A stretch of 64,000 bases of DNA from an uncultured bacterium (GTDB taxonomy: Bacteria; Hydrothermota; UBA3072). The stretch is taken from contig CAYQMH010000002.1 in NCBI GenBank assembly GCA_964418485.1, positions 5,687-69,686 of the forward strand. Direction: 5' to 3'. The position numbers and the translations under genes are program-made. The notes beneath the pieces were generated by a model. The model saw only the letters and a program-made list of their open reading frames with translations, did not search any database and had not been told where the DNA came from. Positions 1,463-54,412 of this stretch are shown piece by piece; position 1 is the first letter of the stretch, and every line of letters begins with the position of its first letter.

Positions 1463-1664
1463 GATAACCTCCTATACATATTTATATACAAAAATATATA
1501 CAATATTGTGTATAAGTCAAGTGCCGGTTTAGCTACGAATCAAATTCTCGCACAAAGCACACAAAGTTTTTTCTTTATTCTAACTTCCAACTTCCAACTC
1601 CTAACTTCCTTATTAGCTACAAATAGCACGAATAATTTATTATGTGTTCTTGTTAGGAGGAATA

Positions 1665-3338: not shown

Positions 3339-3513
3339 CACGCAGAAACACAGACGACACGGAAAAAATGTTTTATTTAACCACGAAATATACGAAAAAC
3401 ACTAAACTTTTTATTACATTTTTTATAAAACCCAACTCATCCCAAAGATAGGAACAACAAATAACACGAATAGCACAAATGAATTGGGACGTAGATAAAC
3501 GCAGATATGCAGG
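3339..3513 (-). repeat. dispersed mosaic intergenic repeat, copy X1
   Basis: Roughly 85% identical in reverse complement to 7855-8010. Sub-modules recur at 53455-53580, 8993-9046, 54286-54412 and 62486-62550. Confidence 0.8.
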
Positions 3514-3584
3514 ATTTTTTGATTGTCGTTTTTCGTAAAGCCTTATGCCGAAGACCGAAATTGTAATCTTGCCCGAAAGTAAAC

Positions 3585-3659: not shown

Positions 3660-3914
3660 GACTCAGGACTCGCGGGCGTGTTGCCCAAAACCAATAGAAT
3701 AAAATAACACAGTTCACATTGTCATTGCGAACTCTTCTTCACGCCTTTCCACCGTGACGCAATCTCCACGTATAGCTTGCAATTAAGCCCTTTAATTTTA
3801 TCACAAGAGATTACTTCGCGAAAGTCGAGCAAGAGGACAAATTCGCAAAGACATTACTTTGGATAGCGAAAAGCCTTTCGGCAACACGCCCTCGCGACTC
3901 ACGACTCCTGACTC
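3660..3914. other. GC-richer ~190-nt segment bounded by a 12-bp perfect inverted repeat plus GACTC heptamer words
   Basis: gggcgtgttgcc (3674-3685) and ggcaacacgccc (3880-3891) form the inverted repeat. Flanking words are gactcaggactc and gactcacgactcctgactc. No ORF of 60 aa or more lies inside. Confidence 0.4.
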
Positions 3915-3917
3915 TTT

Positions 3918-6050
3918 TCATTTAAGTAATATCATCTTACGTTTTTTCTCAAAATCACCTGCTTTGAAAGTGTAGAAGTATATTCCCCGGGGAGCTTGTG
4001 TTCCCACGCTTGTTTTGCCATCCCAGCTAACCTGTTTATATCCTGCGGATTGTTTGGCATTAACCAGTGTTTGTATTCTCTGCCCGATTAAGTTATAAAT
4101 ATCGAGTTGTACAGCTACATCTTTCGGTAATCCGTATTTGATTATTGTGCTTGTCGCAAAGGGGTTGGGATAGTTCTGGGAACAGCTGAATACTTTCGGG
4201 ATACTGTCCGTTGGTTCATCTTTTTTAGGAGTTTTTATTTTTTTTGGTTTAGATCTTTTCATTGAACTCATACCCCCACCTCCGCCTCCATATAGTGGAT
4301 TAGTCGCCGCATAAAAATATCCGCCTTCTTCGACTCTAAATCCAGGTTTTAGACTGATTTTATTTCCTGCTTCCATTGCGACTTTACCTCCGTTTGAACC
4401 ATTGCCTTTTATCCTGAAATCATTTGCTGATATGGAATCCATTGCCTGGTAGGTTTTAGTTTCGTTTGTGTCGATCATTGTCATTGGTATGATTTGGTTA
4501 CCAGGTTTTAGTATGTGATTTTGTATTGTGTAGTAAGCGGGATAAGGATCATCATTGGGGTCTATCACTGAGGTGACATCAGGTAGACGCGATCTCAAGT
4601 ATTCGGGAGGTTTGTAAACTGTATATTCTATATTACCGAATCTTATTATTGGTGGATAGTATCTTTTATGTATGGTATTATCAGCGCAGAAAAAGAACAC
4701 TTTGAGATTATTTAAGAAATCCGGGGTATTTATGACACTATCTAATAGTCCCTCGTATCTTGTAGCCTGACTATCTGGGTTATGTGCTCGTCCTATTTCT
4801 TCAGCCCAGCAGTCGAATACTGTTAAGGTATCGTCAATCGCTAAAGCTGTAACTGTGTCTTTATACATAAGAGGTCCGCCGTTGTATATTATTATATCAT
4901 GCGCATTCTGCTTTCTATTATAAAGAACTACTGTATCTTCAATTTTTAAAAAAGTATCGATTCTTATTATATCTGGCTCCTTCCAAGCCCACATTGCCCA
5001 AACAGTATCCCAAAAAACTTCTCCACTATCACAGGAGTAAGTAACGCAACTTGTATTAGTCTTAATATAATCTTTTCTGCCTCTTTCTGCTCTGACAGGA
5101 TCGGCATTCTGAATGCCGGTCTCAGTAATCCATATAGGTTTGCCTTTTCCGCCGGTATTTGCTTTTAATATTGAATCTAATTCTCTTGTGTATTTCATAA
5201 AATTAGGTGTATTATTGTATATATGATGAGAGACAACATCTATACTGTCTAAACCAATGGATTCGATAAGATCTTTTACGGCCTCTTCCCAGTTAACATA
5301 TTCTTTTGTATCAAATTTACCCTTAAATTCAAGTATAGTATCACCAACTGGCTCCTCGTAATTTGTTGTATCGTAGTACTTCCACTCAAAAGTTCCTTCA
5401 TCACTTGTCATACATAGACCAACAATTTTGGCTGTGGAATCCGCAGATTTTAATGCCGTCCATGTATAATCATACATTTCGACATACTGATCGGGAGTAC
5501 CCAGGAAATAGCCTCCATAAGGTTCATTTGAGAATTGCCAGTATTTTATTGGTGTAAGATTTTCTAAGCCTGGCATATCATTTATCCCATCTCCATCATA
5601 TCTTTCGACAAGTGTGTCTACATAATCTTGATAATCGTCCCAATGATCAGGATCAGGAGGATAACGATATCTATTTTCCCAGCTTAAAGGCTCCGCTTCG
5701 GGATGACTGGCCCAGCCTGCTGTGTAACCTATTGAAGGAAGTAAATGTAAGCCCCTCTCTCCACACCATTTTACAAGGGAATCTTCAGTCTCAAAATCCC
5801 ATTTATCTTCATCCCAGTTATCTGGTTGAACATTACACCATCTGAAAGCGTATTGCGCTCTCCACCATTTTATCCCGGCCTGAGCGCACAAATTCATCGT
5901 TGTTTTGTACTTTTGTTGATATTCTCCATTTTTAGTGAGAGTGTCGTGGTATTCGTAGACAGTACGATTCATTCCAAAAGGAAATAGTTCATCGCCACTG
6001 AAAAGCGAAAGACTAAAAGAAAAGATTATAAGTATAATAAAATTTTTCAT
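3918..6050 (-). CDS. secreted clan GH-A glycoside hydrolase with T9SS C-terminal sorting domain
   Basis: Signal peptide, 'WQFSNEPYG' (NEP acid/base) and 'IWITETG' (nucleophile) motifs, a poly-Gly/Lys-rich linker, and a C-terminal about 80 aa typical of the Por secretion tail. Confidence 0.6.
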   Translation of the reverse strand: MKNFIILIIFSFSLSLFSGDELFPFGMNRTVYEYHDTLTKNGEYQQKYKTTMNLCAQAGIKWWRAQYAFRWCNVQPDNWDEDKWDFETEDSLVKWCGERGLHLLPSIGYTAGWASHPEAEPLSWENRYRYPPDPDHWDDYQDYVDTLVERYDGDGINDMPGLENLTPIKYWQFSNEPYGGYFLGTPDQYVEMYDYTWTALKSADSTAKIVGLCMTSDEGTFEWKYYDTTNYEEPVGDTILEFKGKFDTKEYVNWEEAVKDLIESIGLDSIDVVSHHIYNNTPNFMKYTRELDSILKANTGGKGKPIWITETGIQNADPVRAERGRKDYIKTNTSCVTYSCDSGEVFWDTVWAMWAWKEPDIIRIDTFLKIEDTVVLYNRKQNAHDIIIYNGGPLMYKDTVTALAIDDTLTVFDCWAEEIGRAHNPDSQATRYEGLLDSVINTPDFLNNLKVFFFCADNTIHKRYYPPIIRFGNIEYTVYKPPEYLRSRLPDVTSVIDPNDDPYPAYYTIQNHILKPGNQIIPMTMIDTNETKTYQAMDSISANDFRIKGNGSNGGKVAMEAGNKISLKPGFRVEEGGYFYAATNPLYGGGGGGMSSMKRSKPKKIKTPKKDEPTDSIPKVFSCSQNYPNPFATSTIIKYGLPKDVAVQLDIYNLIGQRIQTLVNAKQSAGYKQVSWDGKTSVGTQAPRGIYFYTFKAGDFEKKRKMILLK

Positions 6051-6085: not shown

Positions 6086-7381
6086 TTAATTTTCTAACGC
6101 GGATATCCTTTTTTCCAAACTTCCATTAGCTTTCCTTAGCTCCTCGTTTTCTTTCTTTAAACCAATAACATAGAGTGTCAATTCTTCAATCTTTTCCAGA
6201 AGTTTTGCCTGCATTTCACCAACTTTTATCCCGCTTTTGAGTACTACTTCTTCTTTTGGGATACCCGGCAGACTTTTGTTGCTTTTGATATGTTTTTCGA
6301 GTTTATCAAGAGGCATTAATTTATAATTGTCCGCGAATACAAAATCAGACCAGTTACTTTCTACGGTTATTTCCTTTGTTCTTATGTGACCGTTAACGGC
6401 AAGTTTGTAATTACCGGGATTAATCGTCCCGATGCCAACATTGCCAGAAATCTTTTGGACAAATAAACCCTTTTCTCCGTCGTTATCATTCCCTCGAATC
6501 AAAACTCCTTGTGCTCCAGCAATAATTCCATACTTATTATCTGTGTTCCTTAAATAAAGTTTCGGATAACAATCTGAGTCTTCAGTATTAATAATTAAAC
6601 GTGCATCGGCATCTGTTCGGTAAATTTGTACATCTCCGCCTTCTACTTCTAATTTTTCATCAGGATCATCCGTTCCGATTCCGACATTGCCTGTTATTAC
6701 AGAATTTCCTTGGACGTGTAATTGTTCCGTAGGATCATCCGTCCCGATACCGACACGACCTGACGGGTCCACAGTAATGGCAAGTCGGTCGAATCCTCCT
6801 CCAATCCCATAAAATTTTAGACCACCATAACCAGCCTGATATCCTTGTATTGATGCGCTTCCAAAGTACATTCTATTATTAAGAGGAATTTTTATATCGC
6901 CGTTCACTTCCAGTTTCTTTTCGGGATCCGTCGTCCCGATGCCGACTTTGCCTGTTATTATAGAATTTCCCGCAACGTGTAATTGTTCCGTAGGATCATC
7001 CGTTCCGATACCTACATTGCCGGAAAAATAACCTTTTCCAACGAAATAACCACCATATCCATTTGAATTTTCACTTTTTCCAAAAAGAGCCATGCCGTTA
7101 CTTGTTTTTACTCTTCCATATACGCCAATTGAATTATCTTCATAGTAAGAATCGGTTTTAGTGTTATAACCGTAAATGGCAGATCGATTCTCCTCCTCCG
7201 TTGGTCCAGCTGCGCTCCATTGTACATGCAATTTGCTGTTTGGATTCGTTACTCCGACACCGACCTTATCCGAACTTGTTGTTAATCTTACTTTAGAACC
7301 ATCGTCAGTCCAGCCGTTCTCTCCATAACTGACCATACTAACCAACAACAATACGAGTACTACAACACTTAATTTTTTCAT
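6086..7381 (-). CDS. secreted tail-fibre-like repeat protein with C-terminal S74 intramolecular-chaperone-like domain
   Basis: Signal peptide, duplicated 'GIGTDDPTEQLHV.GNS.ITG.VGIGT.DP..KLEV' units, and a C-terminal coiled-coil 'GIKVGEMQAKLLEKIEEL...' resembling the endosialidase chaperone domain. Confidence 0.5.
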   Translation of the reverse strand: MKKLSVVVLVLLLVSMVSYGENGWTDDGSKVRLTTSSDKVGVGVTNPNSKLHVQWSAAGPTEEENRSAIYGYNTKTDSYYEDNSIGVYGRVKTSNGMALFGKSENSNGYGGYFVGKGYFSGNVGIGTDDPTEQLHVAGNSIITGKVGIGTTDPEKKLEVNGDIKIPLNNRMYFGSASIQGYQAGYGGLKFYGIGGGFDRLAITVDPSGRVGIGTDDPTEQLHVQGNSVITGNVGIGTDDPDEKLEVEGGDVQIYRTDADARLIINTEDSDCYPKLYLRNTDNKYGIIAGAQGVLIRGNDNDGEKGLFVQKISGNVGIGTINPGNYKLAVNGHIRTKEITVESNWSDFVFADNYKLMPLDKLEKHIKSNKSLPGIPKEEVVLKSGIKVGEMQAKLLEKIEELTLYVIGLKKENEELRKANGSLEKRISALEN

Positions 7382-7555
7382 ACTTTTCCTCCTTTTTTGT
7401 TTTGAGTATTAATTTAACCTAACAACAATAGTCTTTTTTTAGTATAAGAAAAATAGAGTATAATGTCAATATAAAAATTTTTGTTATATAAAAAGCCGAT
7501 ATTTGTGGATGGTAGTTTACTCAAGGTTGTGAATAATTTAGTCATAAGTCATTGG

Positions 7556-7663
7556 AGGCTGTGCCAAAACCCTCTTTTTCGCAATTTGCAGAAAACTAAG
7601 TTCTTGTTTTTCAAAGGCTTATTTTTTAGAAATCCGTTAAATTTGGACTTTTGGCACAGCCTC
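7556..7663 (+). repeat. ~109-bp long-hairpin element, copy A (MITE-like or sRNA)
   Basis: Terminal inverted repeats GAGGCTGTGCCAAAA...TTTTGGCACAGCCTC. About 85% identical to 9054-9162. Confidence 0.75.
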
Positions 7664-7854
7664 ATTGGTCGCTAGTCACTGGTCAAAAACAACAAAAGAA
7701 TCCGTGTTTATCCGTGTAAATCCATGGCAATATAATAGATTCTTCGAATCCAAGTTGAATTGTTGAATAGGAAAATAGTTGAATTATTTCCCATTTCCCA
7801 TTTTTCAATTTTTCTAATTCGTTTGTGGGGGTGGGTTTTAAACAGTAAAAATAT

Positions 7855-8010
7855 CCTGTTAATCTGTGTTCATCTGCGTCCCAATTCATTTGTGCTATTC
7901 GTGAGATTTGTTGTTCCTATCTTTGGGATGGGTTGGGTTTTTAAAAAACATAATAAAAAGTTTAGTGTATTTAGTGGTTAAATAGATTGGTTTTTTCGCT
8001 CTGTGGTTAA
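7855..8010 (+). repeat. dispersed mosaic intergenic repeat, copy X2
   Basis: Reverse complement of 3339-3513 at about 85% identity. Confidence 0.8.
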
Positions 8011-8039
8011 ACAATGGTAGTAGTTTGAATATAGTATTC

Positions 8040-8067
8040 TTGACATTGTAATATATTTAGTTATTTT
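8040..8067 (+). promoter_or_regulatory. putative sigma-70 promoter giving a near-leaderless MNT mRNA
   Basis: TTGACA, 16 nt, TATTTT, with the ATG 8 nt downstream. Confidence 0.35.
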
Positions 8068-8075
8068 GTAATTAA

Positions 8076-8417
8076 ATGGATAAACATTTAGATTACTTAA
8101 ATAAAAAGGAAAAAGAAACAGTAAACTCTTTCATTGAAGATTTGAGGAGAGAATTAGGAGATTATATAATTAAAGTGCGGCTTTTTGGGTCTAAAGTCCG
8201 GGGTGATTTTGAGGAGTATTCGGATATAGATATATTTATCCTCGTCAAAGACAAAAAAGATATACGGGATAAAATAAGTGATATAGCTGCTGAATATTTC
8301 TTTAGATACGAGATTCCTATCTCGCCTGTGGTTTATAGTTTATCAGAATATCAGAAGAATAAGGAATTGGGTTCGTTTTTCTTTGAAGAGATAGAAAAAG
8401 AAGGAATTCTTTTGTGA
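8076..8417 (+). CDS. minimal nucleotidyltransferase (MNT) antitoxin
   Basis: 'LFGSKVRGDFEEYSDIDIFILV' is the GS...D.D nucleotidyltransferase motif. It overlaps the downstream HEPN gene by 4 nt. Confidence 0.7.
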   Translation: MDKHLDYLNKKEKETVNSFIEDLRRELGDYIIKVRLFGSKVRGDFEEYSDIDIFILVKDKKDIRDKISDIAAEYFFRYEIPISPVVYSLSEYQKNKELGSFFFEEIEKEGILL

Positions 8418-8818
8418 GTCGAAAAGCCTTAGCTGATTATAGAATCGAAAGAGCGAAGGAAATATTGGTAGAAGCAAAAGATACTCTTAAACAGAAGCAC
8501 TATAAACTTTCTGTTAACAGAAGTTACTACGCAATGTTTACTGCAGCAAAAGCTTTACTTGCATTAAAAGAAAAAGATTCCTCAAAACGTTCCGGGGTCA
8601 TTTCTTTATTTAGCAGGTATATCATTAAAAACGATTTATTTCCTAAAAAACTTAGTAAATATTTGCCAAAAGCCAAAGATTTAAGAGAAGACGCTGATTA
8701 CGTTGATTTTATAAATATTACTAAAGATGACGCGATTTTGCAGTTGGAAAGAGCTGCAGAATTTATTGAAGAAGCTGAAAGAACTCTTTCGAAAATGATT
8801 AATAAGCCGGAAAAGTAA
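8414..8818 (+). CDS. HEPN-domain protein, partner of the MNT
   Basis: Position and size match the HEPN partner of MNT pairs, with 'LREDADY' in the expected place for the R-x4-6-H-like motif. Confidence 0.6.
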   Translation: MSRKALADYRIERAKEILVEAKDTLKQKHYKLSVNRSYYAMFTAAKALLALKEKDSSKRSGVISLFSRYIIKNDLFPKKLSKYLPKAKDLREDADYVDFINITKDDAILQLERAAEFIEEAERTLSKMINKPEK

Positions 8819-9053
8819 AGTAATAGGTCGGTCGAAGGATCGCCGATGGCTTAAGGCAGGCAAAAAAGAAAAAATTCGTGCTATTCGTGTAATTCCATTT
8901 GAAGTAAATAAAATATCAAAAAGTAAAAAGCAAAATGACAGATAAAAATTTAAAATAATACCTTGCCCTACCGCACATAACTAAAAAATATTTGTGTGAT
9001 TTGTGCTATTTGTTGTTCCTGTCTTTGAGATGGGTTGGGTTTAGCGGAAAGCG

Positions 9054-9162
9054 GAGGCTGTGCCAAAACCCCCTTTTTTGCAAATCGCAGAAAATTAAGT
9101 TATTGCTTTTCAAAAACTTATTTTTTGCAAATTCGTTAATTTTGGACTTTTGTCACAGCCTC
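9054..9162 (+). repeat. ~109-bp long-hairpin element, copy B
   Basis: Same terminal inverted repeats as copy A, with one mismatch, and in the same orientation. Confidence 0.75.
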
Positions 9163-9209
9163 AGCGGTCAGCGGATAGCCGATTATCTTTGTGTTTTTTG
9201 TTTGGGGTG

Positions 9210-9926
9210 TTAGTAAACCTTCCCAATCCGTTTCCAACGGACTTTTCTGAAGAATGAAATTATAGGAACTTCGGATTTCCATGACCAGTAAATTAATAGA
9301 GGAGTTCCGGATATGTTGTCGATTGATACCGGTCCCCAGAATCTCGAATCATCGGATTCATCTCTGTTATCGCCCATAGCGAAAATATATCCCTCTGGGA
9401 CGACTATGGGCCCAAAATTATCCCTTACATAGGGATAATTCATTAATTTTCTTTCTTCCCATAAATTTTGAAGTTGTGCATTTTCTATAGTAAGAGGGGG
9501 ATATTCTTTTGGATCCCTGTGAGAGATATAATCCGCGTTTATGTCTTCGCCGTTTATGAAAAGAGTTTTGTGTTCTATGTAAACCGTATCTCCTTCTACG
9601 GCGGCACATCTTTTTACGAAATTCGTGTTTTTAAATATGCCGTCACCGCCCAGGGGATAGCGGAATACAATAATTTCGCCTTTTTTTGGGTTATTTATTC
9701 TGAGTAAATATTTGTCTGTAAAGGGTAGTTTTATACCGTACTTGAGTCTATTTACGATTAAAAAATCGCCGATAAGAATAGTATCTTTCATCGAGCCGGT
9801 AGGCACATTGAAGGTTTGAACCACAAAACCGCGTAGAAAAAGAATTATGCCTATTGCTATAATCCAGGATTTAACTTCTTTCCATATTTTTTGTTTGTCT
9901 GTCATTTTAGCCACTTCCCGTGACAT
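9210..9926 (-). CDS. lepB: signal peptidase I
   Basis: N-terminal TM segment, 'SMKDTIL.GD' Ser box, and the 'GDNRDESDDSRFWG' box. Confidence 0.8.
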   Translation of the reverse strand: MSREVAKMTDKQKIWKEVKSWIIAIGIILFLRGFVVQTFNVPTGSMKDTILIGDFLIVNRLKYGIKLPFTDKYLLRINNPKKGEIIVFRYPLGGDGIFKNTNFVKRCAAVEGDTVYIEHKTLFINGEDINADYISHRDPKEYPPLTIENAQLQNLWEERKLMNYPYVRDNFGPIVVPEGYIFAMGDNRDESDDSRFWGPVSIDNISGTPLLIYWSWKSEVPIISFFRKVRWKRIGKVY

Positions 9927-23656: not shown

Positions 23657-23872
23657 CTTTGTGTCCTTTGTGAGCTTTGTGTGAATGATTTAGTCATTAG
23701 TCATCGGTCACTAGTCACAGGTCAAAAAAAATTATTTGTGCTATTCGTGCAATTTGTTGTTTCTCTTTGTTTTTGTGAGGGGTAGGGTATAAACAATAAA
23801 AATTCTTTGTTGTTTCTCTGTGATCTCTGTGTGTTTTTTTGTTTCTCTGTGTGCTCTGTGGTTAGAATCGTT
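23657..23872 (+). repeat. dispersed mosaic intergenic repeat Y1
   Basis: Reverse complement of 45789-45916 at about 85% identity. Built from CTTTGTG, TAGTCA and CTCTGTG words. Confidence 0.8.
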
Positions 23873-43295: not shown

Positions 43296-43372
43296 TACCT
43301 TACTTCGAGCAGATAAATTGGATTATTAGCTATTGGCTTTTTGCCTTTTGCTTTTTGCTTTAATTTTTTAAA

Positions 43373-43732
43373 ATGAGAAATTTTAGAAACCTTAATGTAT
43401 GGAAAGAAGGAATTAGGCTTGCAGAAGAGGTCTACAAATTATCGGGATTGTTACCTGGTACTGAGAAAGATGGATTAAAGAGTCAGGTATGTAGATCATC
43501 TATATCAATTCCTTCAAATATTGCTGAAGGATGCAGTAGAGACAGTGAAGTATATTTTAAAAGATTTTTGGAAATCGCTTTAGTTTCTTCATTCGAATTG
43601 GAAACTCAATTTTTAATAGTTAAGGAGCTCGATTTGATTCCAAAGGACAAGTTAAATAAAGTATTGGATTTATTAGACAAAGAGCAAAGAATGCTTAATA
43701 TTTTTGTTGAAAAGCTGGAAGCTGACGGCTAA
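43373..43732 (+). CDS. four-helix-bundle protein (Avd-like, TIGR02436 family)
   Basis: Characteristic 'IPSNIAEGCSR' motif. Length is 119 aa. Confidence 0.6.
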   Translation: MRNFRNLNVWKEGIRLAEEVYKLSGLLPGTEKDGLKSQVCRSSISIPSNIAEGCSRDSEVYFKRFLEIALVSSFELETQFLIVKELDLIPKDKLNKVLDLLDKEQRMLNIFVEKLEADG

Positions 43733-43739
43733 AGTCTAA

Positions 43740-45788
<2,049 letters not shown>

Positions 45789-45916
45789 CCACAGAGTGCA
45801 CAGAGGAAGAAAAAACGCACAGAGAACACAAAGGAACAACAAAGAATTTTTATTGTTTGTACCCCACCCCTCACAAAAACAAAGAGTAACGACAAATAGC
45901 ACAAATAACACAAATC
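45789..45916 (-). repeat. dispersed mosaic intergenic repeat Y2
   Basis: Reverse complement of 23657-23872. Confidence 0.8.
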
Positions 45917-46047
45917 TTTTTTGTTTTTACTATTTGACCATTTTTTAATTTAACTACTCAACTAATCCGAAGGATTGATTATTGGGATGCAGATTAACGC
46001 AGATTTAAAGGGATTTTTTTTGTTGTAAGAAGTGCTGAACCTGTTCC

Positions 46048-46482: not shown

Positions 46483-46566
46483 TATTTACTCTTAGGTAGT
46501 ACGACATTTCATACAGCTTGCCCATAGTCAAACTTGTTCGTTTATGCTCCTGTTTAATACTAGTTG

Positions 46567-46612
46567 TTGAATTCATGATAATTATTATAGTCATTTTACT
46601 TTAACTGTTAAG
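46567..46612 (-). promoter_or_regulatory. repeated consensus promoter module, copy 1 (-35 degenerate, TTAACA)
   Basis: Minus strand reads cttaacagttaaagtaaaatgacTATAATaattatcatgaattcaa. Five copies occur in the window. Confidence 0.6.
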
Positions 46613-46726
46613 CTTCAGCTACATAATGTTCCGCCTGTCCGCGTCTGGGGTGGATAGGGTAAAGGACATTAGCCCACAACGTATATGCTGTGTTAGGCGA
46701 TGCTCTGGTGGCCTTGTATTTGGACC

Positions 46727-47008: not shown

Positions 47009-47193
47009 CTCCTTCTTGTGTTTTTTCGCTTAACATATTCATAAATGCATTGCAGATATCCTCCCAATTTTGCAGTGTAGATGCAATGCGGATATACCGT
47101 TTTTAGGAGAATTGCCAGAATATCCTTCTAAATATTTTTGCTGTATATCACTTTCTTTTTTAAAATTTAGATTGTCCATTTGAATACTAACTA

Positions 47194-47239
47194 TTGAATT
47201 CATGATAATTATTATAATCATTTTACTTAGACTGTCAAG
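47194..47239 (-). promoter_or_regulatory. repeated consensus promoter module, copy 2
   Basis: Minus strand reads CTTGACAgtctaagtaaaatgatTATAATaattatcatgaattcaa. Confidence 0.65.
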
Positions 47240-47344
47240 CATAAGAACAGCAAATGCCGTCAGCTGTCAGTTTTATCTCGAAACCCGTAACCACAACTTT
47301 AATCAACTACAAAGGACACATTTTTATATGTTCATCTTTATTTA

Positions 47345-49420: not shown

Positions 49421-49587
49421 TATATATCCTCCACATTGTCGGCCAAAATTTCACCTACCTTATTCATAGACAAAGTATCTCAATTTCTTTCTTTGACACG
49501 GTGTCGCAATAGAGATAGCTTTTTGCCGTTTTATAACTGTTTTTCTTGATAGGTGTTCTCTGTAAAAGTCTTCAAGATACATTGTTA

Positions 49588-49633
49588 TTGAGTTCATGAT
49601 AATTATTATAGTTATTTTACTTAGGCTGTCAAG
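49588..49633 (-). promoter_or_regulatory. repeated consensus promoter module, copy 3
   Basis: Minus strand reads CTTGACAgcctaagtaaaataacTATAATaattatcatgaactcaa. Confidence 0.65.
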
Positions 49634-49655
49634 TTTAGGAAAAACAAAATATTAT

Positions 49656-51578: not shown

Positions 51579-51602
51579 TTTATAAATTTCCTCCTATTAA
51601 AA

Positions 51603-51643
51603 TCATGATAATTATTATTAGTTATTTTACTTAGGCTGTCAAG
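51603..51643 (-). promoter_or_regulatory. repeated consensus promoter module, copy 5
   Basis: Minus strand reads CTTGACAgcctaagtaaaataactaATAATAATtatcatga, followed by the RBS. Confidence 0.6.
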
Positions 51644-51739
51644 TTTAGAAGCAACAAATCACACGAATTGCACGAATAACACAAATTTTTTAAAGCTAAG
51701 AGCCAAAGGCGAAGGTTGAGGGCGAAAAGCTTTGTTTAA

Positions 51740-53454: not shown

Positions 53455-53580
53455 AGCCACAAAGACACTAAGGCACAAAGAAAAAATTTTTTTAACCACG
53501 AAATACACTAAATTTTTTATTGTAATTTTAAAACCCAATTCCCCAAAAAGGTTAACAACAAATCACACAAATAGCACGAT
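53455..53580 (-). repeat. dispersed mosaic intergenic repeat X3
   Basis: Same orientation as X1, sharing 'aaccacgaaata.ac...aaacactaaa' and 'gaacaacaaata.cac.aatagcac' modules. Confidence 0.7.
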
Positions 53581-53649
53581 TTTTTTTTATGTTTTAATAT
53601 AGGTCTTGACATGGATAATTGATTATCTAAATTATATCAGGAGGTTAAA

Positions 53650-54187: not shown

Positions 54188-54285
54188 CATTAAAATATTC
54201 GCTTTAATTGTATAGGTATAAGATATTTGTTAACAAATACTTATATTAATTTAACTTAAGTTGTTTTTGTTGATCTTGGTCCAGT

Positions 54286-54412
54286 TTATTTGTGATATTT
54301 GTGCAATTTGTTGTTGCTAATTTTTTTGTGGTTGGGGTTGTTTTTAAAGCAGCAAAAAAATTGGGTGTGGAGTGGTGGTGTATCTGAGTTGATCTGCGTT
54401 CATCTGGGTCCT
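54286..54412 (+). repeat. dispersed mosaic intergenic repeat X5
   Basis: 'tttgtgatatttgtgcaatttgttgttgc' and 'gatctgcgttcatctgggtcc' modules are shared with X2. Confidence 0.6.

Follow-up and report, generated by a model that had tools for sequence, protein, structure and literature searches.

Correia/NEMIS elements of Neisseria, RUP of Streptococcus pneumoniae and ERIC of Enterobacteriaceae are non-coding repeats of about 100-150 nt that carry terminal inverted repeats (TIRs), form an imperfect palindrome over their whole length and fall into a few near-identical subfamilies. Short intergenic repeats can also be the target of mobile DNA: the autonomous IS3-family elements IS1397 and ISKpn1 insert specifically into REP/BIME palindromes. 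BIMEs are hairpin-forming intergenic repeats found in mosaic repeat regions, and the STRR heptanucleotide repeats of cyanobacteria, tandem 7-nt intergenic units, are likewise part of mosaic repeats. Elements of the IS5 family reportedly have GAG/GGC termini and generate duplications of 2-4 bp.

MITEs have been described as elements of less than 500 bp that have TIRs and direct repeats, are AT-rich and intergenic, and form a stable stem-loop (PMC10969869). The DNA analyzed here, a stretch of 64,000 nucleotides termed the window, belongs to candidate division WOR-3, which is known solely through metagenomes. A preliminary description of the window reported two similar hairpin elements on either side of an MNT-HEPN gene pair and considered them either a mobile element with toxin-antitoxin (TA) cargo or a family of structured sRNAs or terminators. 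The present analysis indicates that the repeats are, with high probability, MITE copies that inserted independently, presumably by means of a trans-acting transposase, into short tandem arrays on either side of an older MNT-HEPN pair. The finding is real but ordinary, as the element is of a known kind.

The two repeats and the gene pair between them

7555-7663, + strand: MITE copy A (subfamily A), 109 nt; TIRs at 7555-7569 and 7649-7663, complementary at 15/15 positions
9054-9162, + strand: MITE copy B (subfamily B), 109 nt; TIRs at 9054-9068 and 9148-9162, complementary at 14/15 positions
8076-8417, + strand: MNT-type nucleotidyltransferase gene (PF01909, E = 2.4e-10), resident, outside the mobile element
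8414-8818, + strand: HEPN-domain gene (PF05168, E = 9.6e-20), resident, outside the mobile element

The two same-orientation elements, previously put at about 85% identity, are real: each is exactly 109 nt long, and they agree at 95/109 positions (87.2%; 86% over 117 nt; blastn E = 6e-36 within the window), with copy A starting at 7555 rather than 7556. The 15-bp inverted repeat noticed at their ends reads GAGGCTGTGCCAAAA / TTTTGGCACAGCCTC, with TTTTGTCACAGCCTC in copy B. TIRs are kept in all copies of the 109-nt family, the termini being GAGGCTG...CAGCCTC, and the conserved terminal G and C are part of the element, not of the flanking duplication. On both strands, each copy is predicted to fold into a long hairpin of -36 to -43 kcal/mol, with z scores of -4.2 to -5.2 against shuffles. 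The open reading frames (ORFs) at 7481-7675 and 8992-9213, already suspected of being spurious, read through the elements and have no Pfam match; annotation of the window gains from their removal and from no longer treating the TA pair as mobile cargo. Between the copies there is indeed no transposase-like element, and nowhere in the window is an ORF enclosed by matching TIRs spaced 700-3000 nt. The mosaic repeats reported between the copies are present.

The MNT and HEPN genes recognized earlier are borne out by their profile matches and overlap by 4 nt. Their adjacency and domains mark them as a probable MNT-HEPN TA module with a putative toxin, and a promoter-like TTGACA-16-TATTTT lies at 8040-8067, 8 nt upstream of the MNT ATG. 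Five to six relatives (L060-L065; loci of the survey carry L numbers) have an orthologous TA pair of about 89% nucleotide identity (90% amino acid identity for HEPN). There, the pair adjoins lepB-secA without an element on either side, and no TIR-like sequence was found in L060-L065 even with 3 mismatches allowed. At about 89% identity, the intergenic DNA of these relatives cannot be aligned base for base and offers no base-exact orthologous empty site. These loci, which lack both elements, and a paralogous empty array within the window, described below, bear on the empty-site check proposed earlier.

A dispersed family with few variants

A metagenome scan recovered 53 stretches with paired TIRs, 33 of which are full 109-nt homologues (93.6-100% identity). 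Including the two in the window, the scan yielded 35 copies at 30 distinct sites, which settles the earlier question of whether only the window's two copies existed. The element is exactly 109 nt long at all 30 sites and has only 9 sequence variants, with no indels; variants A, B and A' occupy 8, 11 and 5 sites, respectively. Copy A has exact-sequence twins at 7 other sites (L005, L009, L034, L041, L043, L044 and L046) and copy B at 10. So few near-identical variants would point to recent bursts of transposition. Both orientations relative to the arrays occur.

All contigs that host copies have 34-40% GC, and in tetranucleotide composition most of them correlate with the window at 0.95-0.99; two loci of less than 2 kb reach 0.81-0.93. 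One further copy, L001, resides in a GTDB representative MAG and was the sole locus from a strict TIR-pair scan of the GTDB representative genomes, among which the window's own genome is absent. Because copies were drawn from metagenome assemblies, the copy number per genome is a lower bound. A locus reached by homology search, L059, is identical to the window over 8405 nt.

Target-site duplications

7551-7554, no strand: left target-site duplication of copy A, ATTG
7664-7667, no strand: right target-site duplication of copy A, ATTG
9050-9053, no strand: left target-site duplication of copy B, AGCG
9163-9166, no strand: right target-site duplication of copy B, AGCG

The direct repeats seen at the element edges are real, but their length is 4 bp (ATTG, AGCG) and not the 5-6 bp of CATTGG/AGCGG, because the terminal G and C belong to the element and the earlier boundary lay one base too far in. 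The 4-nt flanks are identical at 18/30 sites, compared with a mean of 3.1 and a maximum of 9 in 2000 shuffled flank pairings, and registers other than the 4-bp one give lower flank-identity scores. The other 12 of the 30 sites have imperfect duplications (8 at 3/4, 3 at 2/4 and 1 at 0/4); at least one of these, L043, can be traced to an assembly, recombinant or chimeric, in which the flanks of two other sites are fused. Duplication sequences, mostly RGCK, vary by site and include ATTG, AGCG, GGCG, GGCT, CGCT, TGCT, ATGA and TCTA, among others. The duplication is therefore of fixed length and site-specific sequence, as in a MITE.

Periodicity across the junctions bears on the same point. After removal of 4 nt, period-7 identity over the junction was 123/203, compared with 34-64 at any other offset; 7-nt periodicity is 0.53 within the flanks and 0.28 in the background. 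A 7-bp duplication (TCATTGG), entertained since the flanks are 7-periodic, was ruled out by the register and offset tests.

Insertion into heptamer arrays

7540-7687, + strand: host heptamer array split by copy A, AGTCATA AGTCATT / GGTCGCT AGTCACT GGTCAAA
9043-9183, + strand: host heptamer array split by copy B, AGCGGAA AGCG/GTC AGCGGAT AGCCGAT
23692-23726, + strand: unoccupied paralogous heptamer array, AGTCATT AGTCATC GGTCACT AGTCACA GGTCAAA

The mosaic intergenic repeats of the host genome include, as one module, heptamer arrays with units of the AGCGGnn and AGTCAnn types. The unoccupied array matches both flanks of copy A contiguously (89% and 87%); where copy A has its duplicated ATTG, this array has ATCG (23703-23706). 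Without the element and a single ATTG, the array of copy A counts as many units as this paralogue. Across the family, 28/30 sites lie in heptamer arrays as judged by eye, and 11/30 reconstructed sites passed a strict period-7 test, compared with only 0.32% of background windows. Moreover, a 14-nt target, TACCGCTTAC/GGCT, is occupied at three sites by different subfamilies. The 4-bp duplications together with the restored heptamer register require an insertion mechanism. The preference for arrays appears to reflect targeting rather than selection; it could partly mirror the places where insertions are tolerated rather than a choice at insertion. A literature search on heptamer arrays returned nothing relevant.

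Taken together, the 30 sites, the identical copies within subfamilies, the supported duplication, the empty paralogous array and the absence of elements at the relatives' loci bear out the MITE alternative of the preliminary description. Dispersed copies at occupied sites with empty counterparts, a 109-nt length, 15-bp TIRs and crossing ORFs devoid of Pfam matches are what a MITE presents. The element fits the published MITE description and, within it, type II, in which only the termini are common with an IS (PMC10969869).

Alternative explanations

Copies A and B and the DNA between them could instead form a composite MITE-bounded transposon of the TIME-COMP or MITE-flanked integron type, with MNT-HEPN as cargo. 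Pairs of MITEs are known to mobilize intervening genes (PMC13367494; PMC10969869), and here a self-contained TA pair with its own promoter-like site sits between two copies that are 1.5 kb apart and point the same way. Such a unit would share one outer duplication, and it would occur at more than one locus or its cargo would be missing in relatives; neither was found. Copies A and B are each flanked by a perfect duplication of their own, and the outer flanks are unlike: ATTG precedes A and AGCG follows B. The copies come from different subfamilies and are only 87% identical to each other, yet each has 7-10 exact twins elsewhere. At the 28 other sites no further TIR-bearing copy lies within 4 kb, the 424 kb of MITE-bearing loci contain no homologue of MNT or HEPN, and L060-L065 hold the orthologous TA pair at the same locus without elements. 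On these grounds the earlier idea of a mobilized TA cargo finds no support, and a composite transposon, largely refuted, is most improbable. The bracketing also recalls an integron-type cassette array in which the repeats would be attC-like sites and the TA pair a cassette, given that attC sites are imperfect palindromes of similar length in direct orientation around cassettes and that TA pairs are common cassettes. However, the 28 other sites are solitary copies in ordinary intergenic DNA rather than arrays, a target duplication accompanies each copy, both orientations occur, the GAGGCTG...CAGCCTC termini are unlike the RYYYAAC/GTTRRRY core sites, and the TA pair has a promoter-like site of its own. 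This reading has practically no chance of being correct.

The hairpins invite two further explanations. The elements might be primarily a family of structured RNAs or terminators/attenuators, kept for the hairpin and spread by means other than transposition. Their folds are strong on both strands (z about -5), copy B is placed where HEPN and lepB converge at their 3ʹ ends, a position at which a hairpin could work in both directions, and MITE transcripts co-opted as sRNAs or terminators are known (PMC10969869). However, no Rfam family matched in the window, and none of 35 predicted pairs showed compensatory changes among 8 variants, a weak test with so few variants. The variable TIR position 10/100 changes without compensation, no T-tract follows the stem, and a terminator scan left the elements unflagged. 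Orientation relative to neighboring arrays is variable, and the 4-bp duplications and restored register again call for insertion. The sRNA/terminator alternative of the preliminary description, lacking an Rfam match, compensatory changes and a T-tract, is thus very unlikely, whereas a secondary RNA-level effect of the hairpins is possible. As hairpin-forming intergenic repeats within mosaic repeat regions, the elements also resemble BIMEs, and they might belong with REP/BIME-like palindromes, or with elements that are associated with palindromes and mobilized by a tyrosine (RAYT) or HUH (IS200/IS605) transposase. Yet REP/BIME and RAYT/HUH elements insert without target duplication and lack long TIRs, whereas a 4-bp duplication is demonstrated here; furthermore, 109 nt far exceeds the length of a REP unit. 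Such an origin is exceedingly improbable.

Related elements and a candidate autonomous partner

3674-3891, + strand: second, related MITE family, 218 nt, TIR GGGCGTGTTGCC / GGCAACACGCCC
3670-3673 and 3892-3895: 4-bp duplication TCGC of the 218-nt MITE, inside a heptamer array

A copy of the 218-nt MITE at L033 is 98.6% identical and has a different duplication, TTGC. A longer element, present at L015 (11342-11465) and L005 (1-104), has its terminal 24 nt in common with the MITE, followed by unrelated sequence. It contains GGAGG plus an ATG at nt 113, where an ORF begins MGRY..., and it occupies two different sites in the same kind of array. These features make it a candidate autonomous partner of the MITE. 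Every assembly breaks inside this element: contigs of the neighboring gene stop within or at it in 4/4 assemblies, and a single-TIR scan detected only its left end, at the two sites. Samples with contig ends of the candidate partner are 3300031624 and 3300031551, and the sequence for a full-assembly scan is GAGGCTGTGCCAAAACCCCCCATTATCC. In metagenome assemblies of this lineage, identical 109-nt copies and the candidate parent IS cause breaks or false joins, as illustrated by L043 and by the contigs that end inside the IS.

When all loci were searched for ORFs between inverted repeats spaced 700-3000 nt, no IS of the MITE family was found, and scans of viral contigs for an autonomous element found nothing. 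Two soil-family MITEs surround a 479-aa ORF at L037; this candidate was rejected, as the ORF product looks more like an exported protein than a transposase and belongs to an unrelated high-GC organism. The high-GC soil MITE family, which has the same TIR, shows 3-bp TTA/TAA duplications like those of the IS1031 group.

Proposed mechanism

The repeats would be bound by a DDE-type transposase acting in trans, supplied by a related full-length IS elsewhere in the genome. This enzyme would cut the target with a 4-nt stagger, giving rise to the 4-bp duplication. Insertions of the family lie almost exclusively, and in fixed register, in short tandem 7-nt arrays (AGCGGnn, AGTCAnn). For copy A the array entered is of the AGTCAnn type and lies 413 nt upstream of MNT; for copy B it is of the AGCGGnn type and lies between HEPN and lepB, at their 3ʹ ends. 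MNT-HEPN was already at the locus, and its bracketing by the copies is incidental.

A tentative extension, which we consider possible but somewhat doubtful, is that the transposase moving the 109-nt MITEs, the 218-nt family and the candidate parent IS chooses its target by the fixed-register heptamer arrays, so that the mosaic intergenic repeats serve as "safe-harbour" landing pads dedicated to this purpose. If true, sequence or structure would direct the choice of target, a mode undescribed for short-duplication DDE elements, in an uncultivated phylum. The strict fixed-register heptamer preference is the one feature of possible interest to transposon specialists. More generally, the analysis documents recently active MITE families in WOR-3; a literature search on MITEs in this division returned nothing relevant.

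Comparison with known systems

The start of the TIR and the duplication length resemble features of the IS5 family (IS5 / IS427 / IS1031 groups) and its MITE derivatives, namely GAG/GGC termini and short duplications of 2-4 bp, so that a source in that family is possible. However, IS5 / IS1031 typically use YTAR/TNA targets, unlike the element described here. The host arrays, as distinct from the MITE, are similar to cyanobacterial STRR repeats in being tandem 7-nt intergenic units within mosaic repeats, but unit sequences and phylum differ, and no link between STRR and MITE targeting is asserted. Like IS1397 and ISKpn1, the element prefers to insert into short intergenic repeats, and genes are thereby spared. 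However, those are autonomous IS3-family elements with hairpin-loop targets, whereas here a MITE, and probably also its partner IS, uses fixed-register heptamers.

TIME-COMPs and MITE-flanked integrons likewise have two MITE copies around genes (PMC13367494; PMC10969869), but here the outer duplications mismatch, each copy comes from a different subfamily and the genes between them are older than the insertions. With Correia/NEMIS, RUP and ERIC, the family has in common its size class, non-coding nature, TIRs and overall imperfect palindrome, as well as tens of intergenic copies in few near-identical subfamilies, short duplications and presumed mobilization in trans (PMC10969869). It differs from them in having no sequence similarity, in a variable 4-bp duplication that is mostly RGCK and not TA, in its uncultivated WOR-3 host and in the confinement of its insertions to tandem heptamer arrays.

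Two copies of one element around the MNT-HEPN pair

As the preliminary description held, two elements of ~109 nt in the same orientation and with inverted-repeat ends enclose an MNT-HEPN toxin-antitoxin (TA) pair. The copies, termed A and B, are identical at 95 of 109 positions (or 86% over 117 nt; blastn E = 6e-36), and the two genes between them were found by domain.

Elements and enclosed genes in the window
7555-7663, copy A, 109 nt, same orientation as B
8076-8417, MNT (NTP_transf_2) gene, between A and B
8414-8818, HEPN gene, between A and B, 4-nt overlap with MNT
9054-9162, copy B, 109 nt, same orientation as A

Similarity between A and B begins and ends sharply at the element boundaries, and both copies end in the terminal inverted repeat (TIR) GAGGCTGTGCCAAAA/TTTTGGCACAGCCTC, with no mismatch in A and a single one in B. 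Each copy folds, from either strand, into a single long imperfect hairpin (z = -4.2 to -5.2 relative to dinucleotide-shuffled sequences). A promoter-like TTGACA-16-TATTTT ends 8 nt upstream of the MNT ATG. The two open reading frames over the elements, already regarded as spurious, match no family and are merely translations of the element. Rfam and tRNA scans of the entire window gave no matches.

A multicopy family

The 109-nt element is very probably a bacterial MITE (small non-autonomous transposon) and displays every structural feature by which MITEs are recognized (PMC10969869). This had been one alternative in the preliminary description, and it is borne out by the TIRs, 30 sites, 4-bp duplication and recent bursts. 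Among GTDB representative MAGs, a strict pattern of paired TIRs matched a single copy (locus L001), a slightly relaxed TIR pattern recovered 53 stretches from JGI metagenomes, and blastn with the element returned 33 full-length homologues (93.6-100% identity). Including A and B, the copies number 35 and occupy 30 distinct sites; run as a metagenome scan, the copy count proposed earlier gives at least 30 sites, not two.

Every copy is exactly 109 nt long, and only nine sequence variants occur, with the A sequence at 8 sites, the B sequence at 11 and a third variant at 5. A and B are therefore not duplicates of each other; each belongs to a separate subfamily that was amplified recently, and the element forms a family of many copies that has undergone recent bursts. 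GC content of the host contigs is 34-40%, and in tetranucleotide usage nearly all loci correlate with the window at 0.95-0.99 (two loci <2 kb at 0.81-0.93); the remaining pattern matches come mostly from unrelated organisms of higher GC. JGI contig Ga0315545_1000065 (sample 3300031624) matches the window without a difference over 8405 nt, and copies are also present in eleven further contigs from this sample. The window's SecA shares a 90%-identity cluster with a protein labelled 'candidate division WOR-3 bacterium'.

Target arrays and target-site duplication

Insertions of the element fall preferentially in host heptamer arrays. By eye, 28 of the 30 sites lie within short AGCGGnn-like or AGTCAnn-like arrays, and 11 of the 30 sites, once reconstructed, satisfy a strict test for periodicity, against 0.32% of background windows. 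Both orientations relative to the arrays are seen, and at three sites different subfamilies inserted independently into one and the same 14-nt target. The intergenic arrays of the window, with units AACTTCC, GACTCnn, AGCGGnn, AGTCAnn, TTGCTTT and AAGCTGn, are reminiscent of cyanobacterial STRR repeats.

Intergenic heptamer arrays in the window
1565-1614
3887-3923
9160-9188
23688-23727
43321-43371
43711-43749

An unoccupied paralogue of A's site lies at 23692-23726, where both A flanks align contiguously and the unit count equals that of A's array after subtraction of the element and a single ATTG.

Copies at 29 of the 30 sites share the terminal G and C (the copy at locus L049 begins with A), so both bases are part of the element. 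Beyond them, 18 of 30 sites have the same 4 nt on either side (e.g., ATTG at A and AGCG at B), compared with 3.1 sites on average and at most 9 for randomly re-paired flanks (2000 trials); shifting the register gave a lower count. Since the flanks are tandem 7-nt repeats, such a duplication might be merely the next repeat unit. In an independent test, flanks were joined after removal of 0-8 nt and period-7 identity was scored across the junction; a sharp peak at exactly 4 nt (123/203, versus 34-64 at any other offset) settles this concern. The target-site duplication is 4 bp. Duplications had been correctly recognized in the preliminary description, but their size was put at 5-6 bp (CATTGG, AGCGG) by counting in the element's own terminal bases. 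Imperfect duplications are found at 12 of the 30 sites (8 with a 3/4 match), within arrays that are fast-evolving. At least one of the 12, locus L043, has the upstream flank of L044 and the downstream flank of L041, which points to homologous recombination between identical copies or to chimeric metagenome assembly.

TA cargo and RNA-level roles

The TA pair, earlier proposed as cargo mobilized by the elements, is not MITE cargo. Searching for HEPN homologues (90% amino-acid identity) led to orthologous loci in relatives from five other samples (L060 and L061-L065). They keep MNT-HEPN at the corresponding position, immediately upstream of lepB-secA, with TA genes ~89% identical in nucleotide sequence to the window's; in L061, L064 and L065 the 380-430-aa and FlgD_ig genes likewise lie upstream of the pair. 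When relatives were checked as had been suggested, these loci contained no TIR-like sequence, even with three mismatches allowed, and in L060 the AGTCAnn array upstream of MNT is still intact. Moreover, the outer flanks of the A...B segment are unlike (ATTG vs AGCG), each copy having its own perfect pair, none of the remaining sites has another copy within 4 kb, and 424 kb of other element-bearing loci contain no MNT or HEPN homologues. In this repeat-rich spacer, flanking direct repeats are common, as at L065 1322-1621 and 2442-2741 (300 nt, 95% identical). The other alternative, a family of structured sRNAs or terminators, is unsupported: the element has no Rfam match, compensatory changes affect 0 of 35 predicted pairs among 8 variants, and no T-tract follows the stem, the terminator scan flagging neither copy. 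Hairpin co-option is known for other MITEs (PMC10969869), and this hairpin may have been co-opted at the RNA level, especially in copy B, situated between HEPN and lepB at their convergent 3ʹ ends.

A composite MITE-bounded transposon of the kind in PMC13367494 was rejected, the A...B segment having failed the tests for one. The L065 repeat, a mosaic intergenic direct repeat around the orthologous MNT-HEPN, may be a scar of tandem duplication or recombination.

Other repeats in the window

A mosaic intergenic repeat, ATTTGTGCTATTCGTG...CCTATCTTTGGGATGGGTTGGGTTT, occurs in at least 8 spacers (76-87% identity), and its 3ʹ part forms a terminator-like hairpin with a T-run (the scan flagged 7916-7932 and 9018-9034). 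A ~60-nt intergenic family of four copies (82-89% identity) is unrelated to the MITE. A 119-nt direct repeat (6637-6755 and 6898-7016, 82% identical) reflects internal protein repeats (GIGTDDPTEQLHV motif) of a 431-aa ORF at 6086-7381 (minus strand).

Intergenic repeat copies
3374-3526, mosaic
7842-7984, mosaic
8983-9043, mosaic
23724-23861, mosaic
45789-45925, mosaic
51646-51691, mosaic
53477-53589, mosaic
54268-54348, mosaic
46553-46615, ~60-nt family
47180-47255, ~60-nt family
49584-49648, ~60-nt family
51594-51659, ~60-nt family

Elements with related termini

At two metagenome loci (L015 11342-11465 and L005 1-104), the terminal 24 nt of the MITE are followed by unrelated sequence; these ends occupy heptamer arrays at two separate sites, and the left end has GGAGG as a Shine-Dalgarno sequence plus an ATG (MGRY...) at nt 113. 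This longer element is probably a parent or partner insertion sequence (IS). Contigs of the neighbouring gene stop at the same base in both JGI assemblies, 124 nt into the element, and two Logan unitigs stop earlier, ~28 nt in, within the terminal repeat common to the MITEs; assembly breaks of this kind are expected of a multicopy IS. No partner transposase was found by searching loci for an ORF enclosed between TIRs or in two viral-contig scans. The termini (GAG...) and short duplication resemble those of the IS5 family, to which the candidate IS may belong. As the candidate IS and the 109-nt element share termini only, the latter would be a type II MITE.

Second MITE family in the window
3674-3891, 218 nt, duplication TCGC at 3670-3673 and 3892-3895

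The TIR of the 218-nt family, GGGCGTGTTGCC/GGCAACACGCCC, resembles that of the 109-nt family. The window copy lies inside a GACTCnn array, and a 98.6% identical copy at L033 2921-3139 has the duplication TTGC instead. Further MITE families with the 109-nt family's TIR occur at L002 1667-1785, L006, L010, L014, L017, L018, L021, L025, L030, L037 and L052; one has a similar low-GC host and a 4-bp duplication, TTAC. A high-GC soil family with the same TIR has a 95-96 nt core and 3-bp TTA/TAA duplications.

Comparison with known elements

Strict, register-specific insertion into heptamer arrays is the only unusual feature of the 109-nt element and is common to the second MITE family and the candidate IS. 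The element otherwise behaves like the Correia, RUP and ERIC elements, to which it bears no sequence relationship.
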